Positions 10,317 through 50,404 are shown, counted from the stretch's first letter. The stretch: DNA of 56,766 nt from Alphaproteobacteria bacterium (GCA_017549445.1 JAFYUU010000015.1:1-56766); one strand, 5' to 3'. Program-made: numbers and translations. Notes: generated by a model not told the origin, from the sequence alone.

Positions 10317-10541
10317 ATGCCAAACGTGATGCAACAATTGTTCATCATGAACATAGAATCTTTATTGCGTGAATACGCCGCCTACAAGGCGTTTAACAAA
10401 TCCGACTGCGTAATCAACATGCGTATTCCCCGTCCCATCTTGGACAAGATAAAAGAACTGGCGGATCAACAGCACGTCCCCTATCAATCTTTGATATCAT
10501 CTGTTCTGTTTTCACTGGCCAACCTGGAAGAAAAAAAATGA
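10317..10541 (+). CDS. Ribbon-helix-helix (CopG/BrnA-like) DNA-binding protein
   Basis: AGGAG RBS and INMRIPRPILDKIKELADQQHVPYQSLISSVL RHH pattern. Its stop overlaps the next start (ATGA). Confidence 0.7.
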   Translation: MPNVMQQLFIMNIESLLREYAAYKAFNKSDCVINMRIPRPILDKIKELADQQHVPYQSLISSVLFSLANLEEKK

Positions 10542-11461
10542 CCCCGTCCAAGAAACAAATCTTTAACACCTTGAACACCACCACACACCGTGTGAACGAA
10601 AACATTTCCCCTTCCCTGTTCTCAGACACCAACCCAACCGAAACAAACAACACCGAATTTTGGTATTATTCTGATTTATACAATTTATTTGGCACCCCAC
10701 GGTTTGACATATCCAATGCACGGGAACACACATATCAATCATTTGATTTTTCCCCCACGGGCAAACGTGAACAATTTGATTTCATTCATCAACATCGCCA
10801 AATTATTCAACGAAAATATTCGATAACTTTACCCCACACACCATTTGACCAAATCACAAAACCTGGCACGGACATAAAACTAACTCGCTATGCCTGCTGG
10901 TGCATTTTTAACCAACACCCGTCCCTGATATTCACCCAAACATATTTTATGAATCCTGAAATAGATTTTCAGACCTTGTATAAAATCTCTTATGAATTTG
11001 CCCGGGTATATCAACGCAAAAGATACAAAGAGGTCGAAAAACAATTATCTGGCATTCTGAACAAAATCGATGCAAACATCGCCCTGTTCAAAAGCCACCT
11101 GGACAAAGTTTTTTATCTGGGTCGCACCCACGATGAATTGCGACACGCATATAATCTGCCTAAACAAAATGGTGTTCCCCTGGCGGACCATATGGGTGCC
11201 ATATCGCTGCACGCCCGTCGCACAGCAATAGAACGTGCCATTGAAAAATTCCAGATCTGTCCTATTCGGACATTTCGTGCATTTGCCTATATCGCCCAAG
11301 AAGAAATACACAACGCCCGCATGAAAATGATTTCAGAATACAAGATTACCCCCGAACGTGACATTTATAAAAAAACGGTTTCAACTGTCGCATCTGAATT
11401 AAAACAAATGCAAAAAAATTTCATAAAAAAATATGCCTATCAAGACATTCGTGGCAAATAA
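10538..11461 (+). CDS. Divergent DinD / BRO-N-like protein
   Basis: DIKLTRYACWCI, FTQTYF, EVEKQLSGIL and VPLADHMGAI match the DinD family pattern. Confidence 0.6.
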   Translation: MTPSKKQIFNTLNTTTHRVNENISPSLFSDTNPTETNNTEFWYYSDLYNLFGTPRFDISNAREHTYQSFDFSPTGKREQFDFIHQHRQIIQRKYSITLPHTPFDQITKPGTDIKLTRYACWCIFNQHPSLIFTQTYFMNPEIDFQTLYKISYEFARVYQRKRYKEVEKQLSGILNKIDANIALFKSHLDKVFYLGRTHDELRHAYNLPKQNGVPLADHMGAISLHARRTAIERAIEKFQICPIRTFRAFAYIAQEEIHNARMKMISEYKITPERDIYKKTVSTVASELKQMQKNFIKKYAYQDIRGK

Positions 11462-11474
11462 AAATATCTATAAA

Positions 11475-11500
11475 AAAATGCGGTCTTTCGACCGCATTTT
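11475..11500. terminator. Bidirectional terminator
   Basis: AAAATGCGGTC-TTTC-GACCGCATTTT. Confidence 0.8.
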
Positions 11501-11501
11501 A

Positions 11502-11849
11502 CTAATCGTTCCATCCTGTCCCGACACACCCCAGCGACTCTAAACCCGCCGCCGACGACAGTGCCGTCAAAATTGCACCAATCATAAACAACAAAATAAA
11601 ACCAATCAAAAAAGCAACACCCTTACCCTTCAACTCTGCCATTGCATCAACTTTACCTTTTTCGATATATTCCCATGCCCATTTTGCAATCATAAATCCT
11701 GCACCAACGAACGCCAGTGTTCTCATAATCTTGAACACGCCCTGTAATTCTTCGACCAATTCGCAAATATCCCTCTCGGCTGCAAATGCAGGCATACTGG
11801 CCATAATTCCAACAATTGCGAAATTCAATTTATACATCAGTTTTTTCAT
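11502..11849 (-). CDS. VirB2/TrbC-like pilin (orphan)
   Basis: 115 aa. Signal peptide ending PAFA, then two hydrophobic helices separated by a short charged loop. Confidence 0.5.
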   Translation of the reverse strand: MKKLMYKLNFAIVGIMASMPAFAAERDICELVEELQGVFKIMRTLAFVGAGFMIAKWAWEYIEKGKVDAMAELKGKGVAFLIGFILLFMIGAILTALSSAAGLESLGCVGTGWND

Positions 11850-11932
11850 ATAAAAACCCCTTTCTGTTATAATTCCTTTTTCCATATTTTATCACAAAAC
11901 ATAAACAAATCCAAATAATATATTTAACAAAA

Positions 11933-11951
11933 ATCCCGCATGTTGCGGGAT
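11933..11951 (-). terminator. Terminator
   Basis: ATCCCGCA-TGT-TGCGGGAT with an adjacent A run. Confidence 0.7.
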
Positions 11952-11958
11952 ATATTTT

Positions 11959-48259: not shown

Positions 48260-48330
48260 AGAAATGATAAAAAACATCATCTTTTTTGGAAATAAAAAAT
48301 CGACCACAACGGTCGAACGAAAGGAGATGA

Positions 48331-48406
48331 TGGTGGCTAGGGACGGAATCGAACCGCCGACACAGGGATTTTCAGTCCCTTGCTCTACCAACTGAGCTAC
48401 CTAGCC
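48331..48406 (-). tRNA. tRNA-Phe(GAA)
   Basis: GGCTAGGTAGCTCAGTTGGTAGAGCAAGGGACTGAAAATCCCTGTGTCGGCGGTTCGATTCCGTCCCTAGCCACCA, 76 nt with encoded CCA. Confidence 0.97.
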
Positions 48407-48461
48407 AACGCGAGGACAATAATAAGATACAAAAAATAAAAAAGCAAGGGAAAAAGACAAA

Positions 48462-49982
48462 ATGTTTACAATAAAAGGCAAAACATGTGATTGGGAATTG
48501 GTAATCGGGCTGGAAACCCATATCGAGGTGCTGTCCAATTCTAAATTATTCAGTGGTGCATCCGCTGACTATAACCCAACCGTCGCCCCCAACACCCAGG
48601 TATCTATGGTTGACGTTGCAATGCCTGGAATGTTGCCGGTGTTAAATCAGTTCTGTGTTGACCAGGCAATTAAATTTGGTCTGGGGATAAACGCTGAAAT
48701 ATCCAGAATCAGCCGTTTTGCCCGCAAACAATACTTTTACCCTGACCTGCCCCAGGGATATCAAATCTCGCAACCGGCCGACGAACCACCTGTCGTTGGT
48801 CGTGGCTGGGTTGAAATTATGGGTGACGACGGCAATCCTAAAAAGATTTTCATCGAACGTGCCCACCTGGAACAAGACGCAGGAAAATTGAAACACGATG
48901 TTCATCCAACACGTTCCTTTGCGGACTATAACCGCACAGGTGTTGCACTGTTGGAAATTGTGACATTCCTGGACACGAAAAATCCTGACAATAATTCTTT
49001 TATCACATCACCCGACGAGGCCGAACGTTATCTGCGTGAAATCCGTGAAATCGCACGTGCCCTGGGCGTATCCAAGGCCAACATGGAAGAAGGTTCCATG
49101 CGTGCAGACGTGAACGTTTCTGTCCGTCCCGTTGGCGACAAGAATTTCCGCACACGCACCGAAACAAAAAATATGGTGTCGTTCAAATTTATTAAATCCG
49201 CCATTGAATACGAGGCCCGCCGTCAAATCGAAATCTATGAAAACGGTGGCACCGTCACACAAGATACCATGCGTTATAACCAAGGCGAAGGAACAACATC
49301 AGTAATGCGTAGCAAAGAAGACGCACTGGATTATCGTTATTTCCCAGACCCAGACCTTTTACCATTGGAAATTTCAGACGACCGCATTGAACGCATCCGC
49401 AGCACCATGCCGGAACTGCCATCTGCGACCCGTGCCCGCTATACGCATGATTTCGGGCTGTCTGAATATGACGCATCACGTCTGACCGAAACAACAGATA
49501 TCTCCAAATGGTTTGATACAGCGGTCGGCACCGACACCAAACGTGCCAAACCTGTTGCCAACTGGATGATATCCGAACTGTTTGCCCACCCGGAAAATTG
49601 GGATGTGAAAAACGAAAAATCGGGCATCATCGACGAAATGCGTATTATCACACCATCTGACTTATCAGAACTGGTTGATATGCTGGCCGAAAATACAATC
49701 AACGGCAAACAGGCCAAAGAAATCTTTATTAAAATGTTGGACGGCGAATCCGGAACACCACGCAACATCGCCGACAAATTCGGCATGAAGCAAATGACCG
49801 ATACAGGTGCGATTGAAAAAATCGTAGACGAGGTTATCGCATCAAACCCTGCCCAGGTTGAACAATATAAATCTGGCAAGGTCGGACTGCTGGGATTCTT
49901 TGTTGGCAACGTTATGAAGAAAACAGGCGGCACTGCAAATCCTGCTGTTGTAAATGAAATCCTGCGGGGAAAATTGGCATAA
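48462..49982 (+). CDS. gatB: Asp/Glu-tRNA amidotransferase subunit B
   Basis: VIGLETH, ARKQYFYPDLP.GYQISQ, HLEQDAGK, GSMRADVNVS, DYRYFPDPDL and a Yqey-like tail. Confidence 0.96.
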   Translation: MFTIKGKTCDWELVIGLETHIEVLSNSKLFSGASADYNPTVAPNTQVSMVDVAMPGMLPVLNQFCVDQAIKFGLGINAEISRISRFARKQYFYPDLPQGYQISQPADEPPVVGRGWVEIMGDDGNPKKIFIERAHLEQDAGKLKHDVHPTRSFADYNRTGVALLEIVTFLDTKNPDNNSFITSPDEAERYLREIREIARALGVSKANMEEGSMRADVNVSVRPVGDKNFRTRTETKNMVSFKFIKSAIEYEARRQIEIYENGGTVTQDTMRYNQGEGTTSVMRSKEDALDYRYFPDPDLLPLEISDDRIERIRSTMPELPSATRARYTHDFGLSEYDASRLTETTDISKWFDTAVGTDTKRAKPVANWMISELFAHPENWDVKNEKSGIIDEMRIITPSDLSELVDMLAENTINGKQAKEIFIKMLDGESGTPRNIADKFGMKQMTDTGAIEKIVDEVIASNPAQVEQYKSGKVGLLGFFVGNVMKKTGGTANPAVVNEILRGKLA

Positions 49983-49985
49983 CAA

Positions 49986-50198
49986 ATGAACATACGAAAT
50001 TTGGCACTTAAACTAATAGAACAAAGCGAGGTTGAAGTGTATTCAATGCTAAACATTTTACGTGACCTATCAACAGACGAAGCCCGCAGCAAAATTCGCA
50101 CCCAGGAACGTCTATACGCACGAAAATCGGCATATGTTAAATCTCGGAACACATATCGTGTGGTCCAACAAAGATATAAACAACGAATCAAAAAGTAA
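49986..50198 (+). CDS. Small basic hypothetical protein
   Basis: 70 aa, starts 3 nt after the gatB stop and ends YKQRIKK. Confidence 0.6.
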   Translation: MNIRNLALKLIEQSEVEVYSMLNILRDLSTDEARSKIRTQERLYARKSAYVKSRNTYRVVQQRYKQRIKK

Positions 50199-50209
50199 GG
50201 AGTAAAACC

Positions 50210-50404
50210 ATGGCAAAAAAGAAAAACATCATCAACGTTGTCACCGCTACACACGACGTTATTTTGGGAACAACATATAAAACAACCCCTGTCGTTGTAG
50301 AAGAACAATCAGATATTTCCGACAAATATGAACGTGCATTGGCCGGTGCCACACGCACAAAAACCACCGTTGCACAACGTGCATATCGGACACATAAAAA
50401 ATAA
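50210..50404 (+). CDS. Small basic hypothetical protein
   Basis: 64 aa with AAGGAG RBS, ends YRTHKK. Confidence 0.7.
   Translation: MAKKKNIINVVTATHDVILGTTYKTTPVVVEEQSDISDKYERALAGATRTKTTVAQRAYRTHKK

Follow-up and report, generated by a model that had tools for sequence, protein, structure and literature searches.

The closest described counterparts of the protein tails considered here are the C-terminal signals carried by substrates of VirB/D4-type type IV secretion systems (T4SS), namely VirF, VirE2 and VirE3 of Agrobacterium tumefaciens and Msi059 and Msi061 of Mesorhizobium loti. The Agrobacterium signal reportedly conforms to the consensus R-x(7)-R-x-R-x-R, a pattern said to go back to Vergunst et al. 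in 2005. At their C-terminus the VirB/D4 substrates of Agrobacterium have an Arg consensus in common, and a stretch of 19 residues is enough for transfer (PMC10025392). We analysed a stretch of 56,766 nucleotides from an Alphaproteobacteria bacterium (GCA_017549445.1 JAFYUU010000015.1:1-56766), hereafter the window, which makes up the initial 56.8 kb of contig C15 in a Candidatus Enterousia metagenome-assembled genome (MAG), G000. Accessory proteins encoded in the window and elsewhere in this genome frequently end in a short basic tag, [KR]-x-[KR] at the extreme C-terminus, and the nature of this tag and its possible relation to a T4SS are the subject of this study.

The tag shares several features with the Agrobacterium and Mesorhizobium signals. 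Both occur in the alphaproteobacterial lineage of type IVA secretion systems (T4ASS) with VirD4, and both are located at the extreme C-terminus, are hydrophilic and positive, show alternating basic residues and are found on unrelated proteins. The known substrates lack Sec signals, as may most of the tagged proteins. In contrast, the core of the Enterousia tag spans three residues only, the last of them being the C-terminal residue itself, and is as rich in Lys as in Arg. The tag is present on about 28% of the accessory proteins, some of them enzymes, and is missing from a sister family that possesses the same T4SS. The tag is not described in the literature searched and is a variant on known C-terminal signals.

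A second point of comparison is the universal bias in the C-terminal composition of bacterial proteins, in which Lys is enriched 2.3-fold and Arg 1.8-fold while Thr is depleted (Weber et al. 2020, PMC7246954). This bias forms a monotonic gradient which includes position -2 (counted from the C-terminus, the last residue being -1), and in Mycoplasma pneumoniae a C-terminal Lys results in up to fourfold higher expression by slower degradation (PMC7246954). The Enterousia proteome is similar in that Lys and Arg are raised and Thr is lowered at the last position, in that the effect is partly codon-specific, and in that core proteins are affected too. However, the universal bias is a smooth gradient seen in all functional categories, whereas the tag described here is confined to accessory proteins, to positions -1 and -3, and to one genus.

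Members of Enterousia (order Rs-D84) are rod-shaped, fermentative bacteria with genomes below 1 Mb, which probably depend on other cells; secretion goes unmentioned in that account (PMC12306168). GatB and its flanks in the window are 85-93% identical to many MAGs, labelled Candidatus Enterousia or 'Alphaproteobacteria bacterium', from the guts of ruminants, horse and birds. The assembly under study comprises 763 kb in 19 contigs, is 64% complete and has a GC content of 43%. A dicodon-score selector of open reading frames (ORFs) yielded 730 genes at a coding density of 90%; the choice of start codon leaves the C-termini unaffected. Two genomes were used for comparison, a congener (G003; 945 kb in 2 contigs, 50% GC) and a member of another, sister family of the order (G028; 931 kb, 30% GC). 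Proteins with a tblastn match in the sister-family genome were classed as order-core (n=367), those with a reciprocal best match in the congener only as genus-conserved (n=141), and those matching neither as accessory (n=198).

Any analysis of C-terminal motifs has first to subtract the strong universal bias for a terminal Lys, which is pronounced in this organism. Among all called proteins 38% end in Lys or Arg as compared to 11% expected from bulk composition. The enrichment at the last codon is 6.4-fold for AAA, 8.2-fold for AGA, 2.9-fold for CGA, 2.4-fold for CAA, 2.2-fold for GAA and 1.8-fold for AAG, and by residue position -1 shows Lys at 4.96-fold, Arg at 1.76-fold and Thr at 0.04-fold. 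A terminal Lys is found in 28-32% of the proteins of each conservation class, and it is also frequent elsewhere in the order (18-29% in the two comparison genomes). The terminal Lys is thus a proteome-wide stop-context bias, AAA before TAA, which includes the core proteins, and represents a strong form of the universal bacterial bias. The sequence-only reading of the window had cautioned that several housekeeping proteins there also end in Lys; this caution holds for every class, and the universal C-terminal bias for Lys and Arg accounts for it. The ribosome-binding site or translational coupling was rejected as a cause, since terminal Lys or Arg is at 38% whether the downstream gene is coupled, distant or convergent.

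Over this general layer lies a second one confined to the accessory class. The tag [KR]-x-[KR]-COOH is present on 5.4% of order-core, 4.3% of genus-conserved and 28.3% of accessory proteins, corresponding to 56 of the 198 accessory against 26 of the 508 conserved proteins (p=5.5e-16). Terminal Arg follows the same distribution (2.5%, 5.7% and 22%, respectively). A lineage-specific C-terminal tag on ORFan-type proteins, as proposed from the window, therefore exists genome-wide, on 28% of accessory against 5% of conserved proteins, and the comparison of ORFans with core genes bears out its basic half (at most 5.4% in either other class). The aromatic half that had been proposed alongside it did not hold. 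Phe or Tyr at positions -4 to -8 is found in 33.8% of order-core, 34.8% of genus-conserved and 32.3% of accessory proteins, and in 28-32% of the congener's classes. With one protein per family, the association of an aromatic residue with the basic tail in the accessory set did not reach significance (odds ratio (OR) 1.8, p=0.13). The pattern originally proposed, [FY]-x(1-4)-[KRQ]-x-[KR]-COOH, does match 12% of the accessory proteins and at most 2% of the other classes, and this enrichment is due to its basic half alone. The tag is therefore a basic [KR]-x-[KR] at the extreme C-terminus, and the aromatic residue is no part of it.

The simplest alternative is that there is no biological signal at all, the tag being produced by AAA or AGA before TAA, A-rich 3' ends, undetected paralogy and a motif chosen after the fact. 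Three observations speak for such a composite: the enrichment at -1 is codon-specific in this genome (AAA far above AAG, AGA far above CGT), several of the tagged proteins are paralogues, and the enriched neighbouring residues Gln, Asn and Thr have A-rich codons. Nevertheless, the enrichment survives conditioning on AAA, family collapse and register controls. Among proteins whose last codon is AAA, position -3 is Lys or Arg in 31 of 56 accessory (55%) and 18 of 128 conserved proteins (14%; OR 7.6, p=2e-8), so the excess persists once the stop-context bias is modelled; for any terminal Lys or Arg the values are 52% and 16%. AAG is used freely at position -3. Pure stop context is ruled out by the conditioning on AAA together with the codon usage of the congener (see below). 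When families were collapsed the tag remained on 15.9% against 6.3% (p=2.5e-4), and singletons alone gave 15.4% against 6.8% (p=1.7e-3), which rules out pure paralogy.

The enrichment is also specific in register. Neither [KR][KR] nor [KR]..[KR] at the C-terminus, nor the tag shifted by one residue ([KR].[KR].), is enriched in the accessory set, and position -2 shows no basic enrichment. Within accessory proteins positions -1 and -3 covary (OR 3.4, p=2e-4). Internal [KR]-x-[KR] occurs at 1.2% in both classes, and Arg is scarcer overall in non-core proteins. A general positive charge across the last 10-20 residues, considered as an alternative description, is weak at most. The longer pattern [KRN]-x-[KR]-x-[KR] is present in 8.1% of accessory and 1.2% of conserved proteins. 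The same flanking extras, Gln at -2 and -4 and Asn or Arg at -5, are seen in this genome and in the congener, giving a fuller consensus of [N/R]-[Q]-[K/R]-[Q/T/S]-[K/R]-COOH with a core preference for K-[Q/T/S]-[K/R] and an R/N-x-K-x-K/R alternation. Within the accessory class the tag is found in 23-29% of proteins by tercile of coding score and in 23-39% by length above 80 amino acids. This independence of score and length, the retention of the ORFs in relatives and the clean control described next exclude a gene-calling artefact.

The tag was replicated in the congener, where 19.2% of the proteins without a match in the other two genomes carry it as compared with 6.5% of the remaining proteins (p=2e-7). 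Terminal Arg reaches 23% in the congener's lineage-specific proteins compared to 4-6.5% elsewhere, and is encoded by AGA (16), CGT (13), CGC (11) and CGA (8). This mixture of Arg codons indicates a preference for the amino acid, that is, at the protein level. An identical pipeline applied to the sister-family genome gave 8.7% against 6.6% for lineage-specific proteins (p=0.22) and no excess of terminal Arg; the pipeline is therefore no source of the signal. The tag is specific to the genus Enterousia, being enriched in both genomes of the genus and not in that of the sister family. Together with the conservation of the tail residues under synonymous change in 80 relatives (see below), these results largely refute the absence of a biological signal, which we regard as very improbable. 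In our judgement the tag is very probably real and under selection.

The eleven proteins from which the tag was first noted are all encoded in the window with the C-termini that had been listed. They are as follows (coordinates in the window, strand, description).

10538..11461, plus strand: DinD-like accessory protein of 307 amino acids, tail ...YQDIRGK (R-G-K tag), matching phrog_8036 at 1.5e-19
22909..23316, minus strand: family A member of 135 amino acids with an N-terminal transmembrane helix, tail FVKQK (blastp against 28403, 2e-5)
23326..23712, minus strand: family A member of 128 amino acids with an N-terminal hydrophobic segment, tail FMQRQK (blastp against 28403, 4.5e-6)
27168..27659, plus strand: singleton accessory protein of 163 amino acids from ATG, tail NAMQR, with terminal Arg and a non-basic residue at -3
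27710..28402, minus strand: family B member of 230 amino acids, tail YAKSR
28403..28762, minus strand: family A member of 119 amino acids with an N-terminal transmembrane helix, tail FVKGR
28764..29576, minus strand: family B member of 270 amino acids from ATG, tail YSKKVK
46067..46360, plus strand: small accessory protein between gatC and gatA, tail FIEQQR (orthologues end in F/Y-[LI]-x-x-x-Q-R)
46365..46796, plus strand: family C protein of 143 amino acids with 4 invariant Cys, between gatC and gatA, tail HYGKQK
49986..50198, plus strand: family S2, small helical protein of 70 amino acids between gatB and miaB, tail YKQRIKK (orthologues R-T-K-x-K)
50210..50404, plus strand: family S1, small protein of 64 amino acids between gatB and miaB, tail YRTHKK (orthologues R-G-E-R-T-K-x-K)

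All eleven fall in the accessory class, to which 15 genes of the window belong. Their description as ORFans is wrong for the protein at 10538..11461, which is phage-associated: it is similar to a gene of Akkermansia phage Chantilly whose annotation reads 'DNA-damage-inducible protein D', is the only one of the listed proteins with a PHROG match, and is missing at the syntenic site in the congener. The loose consensus proposed for the tails fits eight of the eleven, while FMNRLNAMQR (27659), YKQRIKK (50198) and YRTHKK (50404) do not conform to it. About eight families remain after grouping of paralogues, so that several unrelated families are indeed involved, but eleven independent cases would be an overstatement. 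No domain was found in a Pfam scan of nine of the listed proteins, and families A, B, C, S1 and S2 belong to no Pfam or PHROG family.

The three members of family A (22909, 23326 and 28403) are paralogues which have their C-terminal 35 residues in common and carry a membrane helix at the N-terminus; the protein at 22909..23316 matched neither Pfam nor PHROG. Assignment of the protein at 46067..46360 (ORF 46013) to this family was considered and not established, as the link was a weak one (hhalign E 0.036). Family B has nine paralogues in the genome and was detected within the genus only, in 10 of 24 congeners and in none of 16 genomes from the order's other families. A profile search returned only hypothetical proteins from alphaproteobacterial MAGs, and a search for related loci with a single family B member as query gave no match. 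The AF2 model of the member at 28764..29576 is of mediocre quality (pLDDT 60.5), places the tail at the end of a long C-terminal helix, and has no match among PDB folds. Family C was modelled better (pLDDT 85, pTM 0.79), with low confidence for the last three residues, which are presumably flexible. Its model found no match in the PDB by Foldseek (best E 1.6), and the family may represent a new small fold.

Selection on the tails was followed in 80 related loci around gatB from Enterousia. In these loci the junctions gatC|gatA and gatB|miaB of the gatCAB-miaB cluster (45751-50418 in the window) are hot-spots of insertion and hold 0-3 small accessory ORFs per species, often as tandem duplicates, and when either junction is empty the gap measures 6-9 bp. 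Types S1 and S2 were found in most of the 80 loci and family C in 46 of the 80 relatives, often in tandem; the type represented by 46067..46360 occurs in a minority. S1 is a beta-hairpin followed by a helix and S2 is all-helical, and their bodies are unrelated; they nevertheless end in a common module of 11 residues, K-[KR]-[IL]-R-x-E-R-T-K-x-K, with alternating R-x-K-x-K. The copies in the window (...QRIKK in S2, ...RTHKK in S1) deviate slightly from the family norm. Mean column entropy of the last six residues compared with the body is 1.59 against 2.22 in S1, 1.14 against 2.05 in S2 and 1.34 against 2.2 in family C. The tails are thus the best-conserved part of these proteins, the last Lys being almost invariant and position -2 free. 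In family C the C-terminal 40 residues are strongly conserved, with the terminal Lys at 90% or above and Y139 invariant. Beneath the conserved tails the codons vary synonymously (CGN/AGA, ACA/ACC/ACT, AAA/AAG, CAC/CAT). This pattern in the aligned loci argues for a function of the tag at the level of the protein and for its maintenance by purifying selection.

The same loci bear on the possibility that the tail is a by-product at the level of DNA, its codons overlapping a recombination or boundary site of a gene cassette or the re-initiation region of the next gene. Variable accessory inserts, 0-3 in number, at fixed junctions would fit such an origin, as would the repeated hairpin element that flanks some of the blocks and the short gaps to the next start codon. 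However, synonymous variation beneath the conserved residues and the varied Arg codons of the congener are difficult to reconcile with it. Tight coupling to a downstream gene makes no significant difference to the frequency of the tag (30% against 24% of accessory proteins), and the hairpin element is also found between core convergent genes. We consider this origin extremely improbable. The arrangement at the junctions is reminiscent of integron-like arrays of gene cassettes, which likewise contain small, promoter-less, variable ORFs in variable number at fixed junctions. It differs from them in that the common feature in Enterousia lies at the level of the protein and not of the DNA; no integrase or attC structure was seen, although no search for one was made.

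In the hairpin element itself, 'CTATAYGCATAAAAA' precedes a GC-rich hairpin and a run of T; the element is present in the window at 22874-22910, 27057-27093, 27675-27711 and 45245-45285. Chance alone would give 0.01 copies in place of these 4, and in the whole genome the hairpin is found at 7 sites. The element flanks accessory blocks and also sits between core convergent genes, and the gene at 27168..27659 is bracketed by copies at 27049-27107 and 27667-27725. The element resembles a bidirectional terminator whose 5' box is conserved. As a separate observation, GC skew is about -0.23 along the entire 160 kb of contig C15 and reaches ±0.2 to 0.36 on several other contigs, a strong compositional asymmetry of the strands that is largely independent of gene strand.

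Elsewhere in the genome the tagged accessory proteins include, by Pfam match, ankyrin-repeat, adenosine-deaminase-like (A_deaminase) and DUF3419 proteins, with weaker matches to HD and alpha/beta-hydrolase domains; inspection of the sequences added a B12/radical-SAM-type enzyme and GNAT-like proteins. The ankyrin-repeat protein (C13:3294-4799; Ank_4 at 1.7e-35, ending in ...KLVKAK) is accessory and the sole one in the genome, and no counterpart was found in the congener. Among proteins without a homologue in the sister-family genome, a set that covers all non-core proteins and was defined before the split into three classes, the tag is present on 22.6% of those lacking hydrophobic segments and on 7.6% of those with an N-terminal one (p=7e-4). 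A further tagged accessory family is rich in Cys (CxGCxxxC motifs), and all five of its members end in C-[DI]-[HN]-Y-K-[TI]-[KR].

C15:136844-138037, C18:9675-10067, C3:3545-3856, C5:964-1785: members of the Cys-rich tagged family, which counts five

The distribution of the tag over these proteins bears on its main rival explanation, which is based on solid published biology. According to this explanation the tail serves expression and stability: basic C-termini slow degradation, new or fast-evolving exposed proteins are most in need of such an anti-degron, and the tag would simply mark the youth of a gene. In agreement with this, enrichment of Lys and Arg at the C-terminus is universal and Lys raises expression (PMC7246954), a Lys at the last position is frequent here whatever the class, and the tag is present on enzymes expected to act in the cytoplasm. 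However, the universal gradient includes position -2, which is neutral in Enterousia where only -1 and -3 respond. The lineage-specific genes from the sister family are not enriched, and proteins that are conserved in the genus and absent from the rest of the order have the tag in just 4.3% of cases. Its scarcity on proteins with an N-terminal hydrophobic segment also does not point in this direction. A stability tail thus appears unlikely, though it has to be taken seriously.

The sequence-only reading had connected the tails with a T4SS and recommended a search for virB4 and virD4. Searches of 26 genomes from across the order detected VirB4 in 22 and VirD4 in 25 (the genome under study is among the 26), and both are carried by all of the high-quality ones. 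The genome under study encodes VirB9 and VirB10; a Pfam search of it for TrbL/VirB6 returned no match. The lineage thus has both genes in nearly all relatives, but this assembly itself yielded neither. The vir genes are scattered in the genome, as in the rvh system of Rickettsiales. The end of contig C15 (~155000-159751) lies within a block syntenic with the region of the congener that leads to virB3-virB4, and since the contig ends near this neighbourhood the absence of VirB4 probably reflects a gap in the assembly rather than loss of the gene. As a side observation, the VirD4 ORF encodes 1137-1220 amino acids in four genomes (G001, G002, G007 and G011) as compared to ~740-770 in others, an extension of about 400 residues.

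A VirB2-like gene had also been placed in the window by the sequence-only reading.

11502..11885, minus strand: genus-conserved small membrane protein, untagged (ends in GTGWND), with VirB2-like topology

On reading of the sequence this small protein has a signal peptide and two hydrophobic helices, so that size and topology are right, but it has no match to the TrbC/VirB2 profile PF04956 and was not recovered in a six-frame search of the genome with that profile at E<=0.1. It has no Pfam match at E<=0.01 and no sequence relative in the PDB. Its orthologue in the congener is 54% identical. It is the best, though non-significant, match in the genome (blastp E 0.69) of the Pfam-positive TrbC that adjoins virD4 in the sister-family genome, with which it has a 'VFK-x-[IM]-RTL' stretch in common. 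With no profile match and this single link, we do not accept it as VirB2. The minus strand at 20078-20548 encodes a protein resembling type IV pilins, with 'MIEMLGVLAIMGVLTVGAIE' as its N-terminal motif; it is absent from the ORF-selector calls as it is overlapped by an over-long uvrC ORF (20174-22018).

The joint explanation that we favour combines the stop-context layer, a selected accessory tag and a label read by the T4SS, and we put it forward tentatively, at somewhat less than an even chance. On this explanation the accessory proteins, mostly soluble and encoded as small inserts between housekeeping genes, carry a C-terminal tag that would be recognised by VirD4, the coupling protein of a T4SS that resembles rvh and is conserved in the lineage. 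The tag would act as a shorter, Lys-rich analogue of the alternating-Arg signals on Agrobacterium VirB/D4 substrates, and ~50 proteins per genome, forming an exchangeable pool, would thereby be destined for a partner cell. In its favour are the conservation of the coupling protein among relatives, the hydrophilic, basic and alternating nature of the tag, its threefold higher frequency on non-core proteins lacking hydrophobic segments as compared to those with an N-terminal one, and its location on a variable gene pool that moves horizontally and includes an ankyrin-repeat protein. That the T4SS is the reader of the tag is, by analogy with those substrates, possible and rather doubtful. More doubtful still is the specific form of this proposal, in which K-[Q/T/S]-[K/R]-COOH would be a minimal VirD4 address label and ~50 accessory proteins (~8% of the proteome) would be injected effectors that are traded horizontally. 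The effectors of Bartonella (Bep proteins, with a BID domain and a positive tail) and of the Rickettsiales rvh system offer a parallel: these organisms, too, are host-dependent, with reduced genomes and scattered vir genes, and their effectors have basic C-termini and include ankyrin-repeat proteins. Unlike the Bep proteins, the tagged Enterousia proteins have no BID-like or other shared upstream domain.

Several of our observations weigh against delivery through the T4SS. Neither VirB4 nor VirD4 was found in the 64%-complete assembly under study, and the sister-family genome has VirB4, VirD4 and a TrbC pilin, yet shows no enrichment of the tag. The tag is far shorter than the characterised T4ASS signals, and the excess of positive charge resides almost wholly in the last 5 residues (+0.21 against +0.07 per residue). 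Some of the bearers do not look like cargo: the tagged B12/radical-SAM-type and adenosine-deaminase-like enzymes are unlikely to be exported, GNAT-like proteins are also tagged, and family A is membrane-anchored yet tagged. Remote homology among the 'singleton' accessory proteins may inflate the number of independent cases, and the motif definitions were partly adjusted after inspection of the data, although the replication in the congener held.

Another possibility is that the tag is specific but is read by something other than the T4SS, such as envelope or vesicle sorting, a protease adaptor, the binding of nucleic acid or membrane, or, for an NLS-like (nuclear localization signal-like) K-K/R-x-K/R, a eukaryotic partner. 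The motif is specific in spacing and register and is conserved, the tag is confined to the genus while the T4SS is order-wide, and many of the bearers are very small basic proteins. However, no candidate for such a reader came to light, and the bearers, which range from enzymes and ankyrin-repeat proteins to membrane-anchored proteins, are too diverse for a single binding function. We therefore consider a reader of this kind improbable.

Candidatus Enterousia is a widespread uncultured gut bacterium that probably lives off other cells (PMC12306168). If the tag were instead a stability tail, it would provide a natural example of the lineage-specific tuning of C-terminal degradation in newly acquired genes. 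Should it prove to be an export label, the tag would offer a portable signal of very small size with which to examine how T4SS coupling proteins recognise substrates. Were delivery through the T4SS true, the pool of delivered proteins would span orphan proteins of very small size, an ankyrin-repeat protein and the products of genes derived from phages, the tag would be the shortest T4SS signal known, and the effectors of an uncultured obligate symbiont could be listed from its sequence alone.

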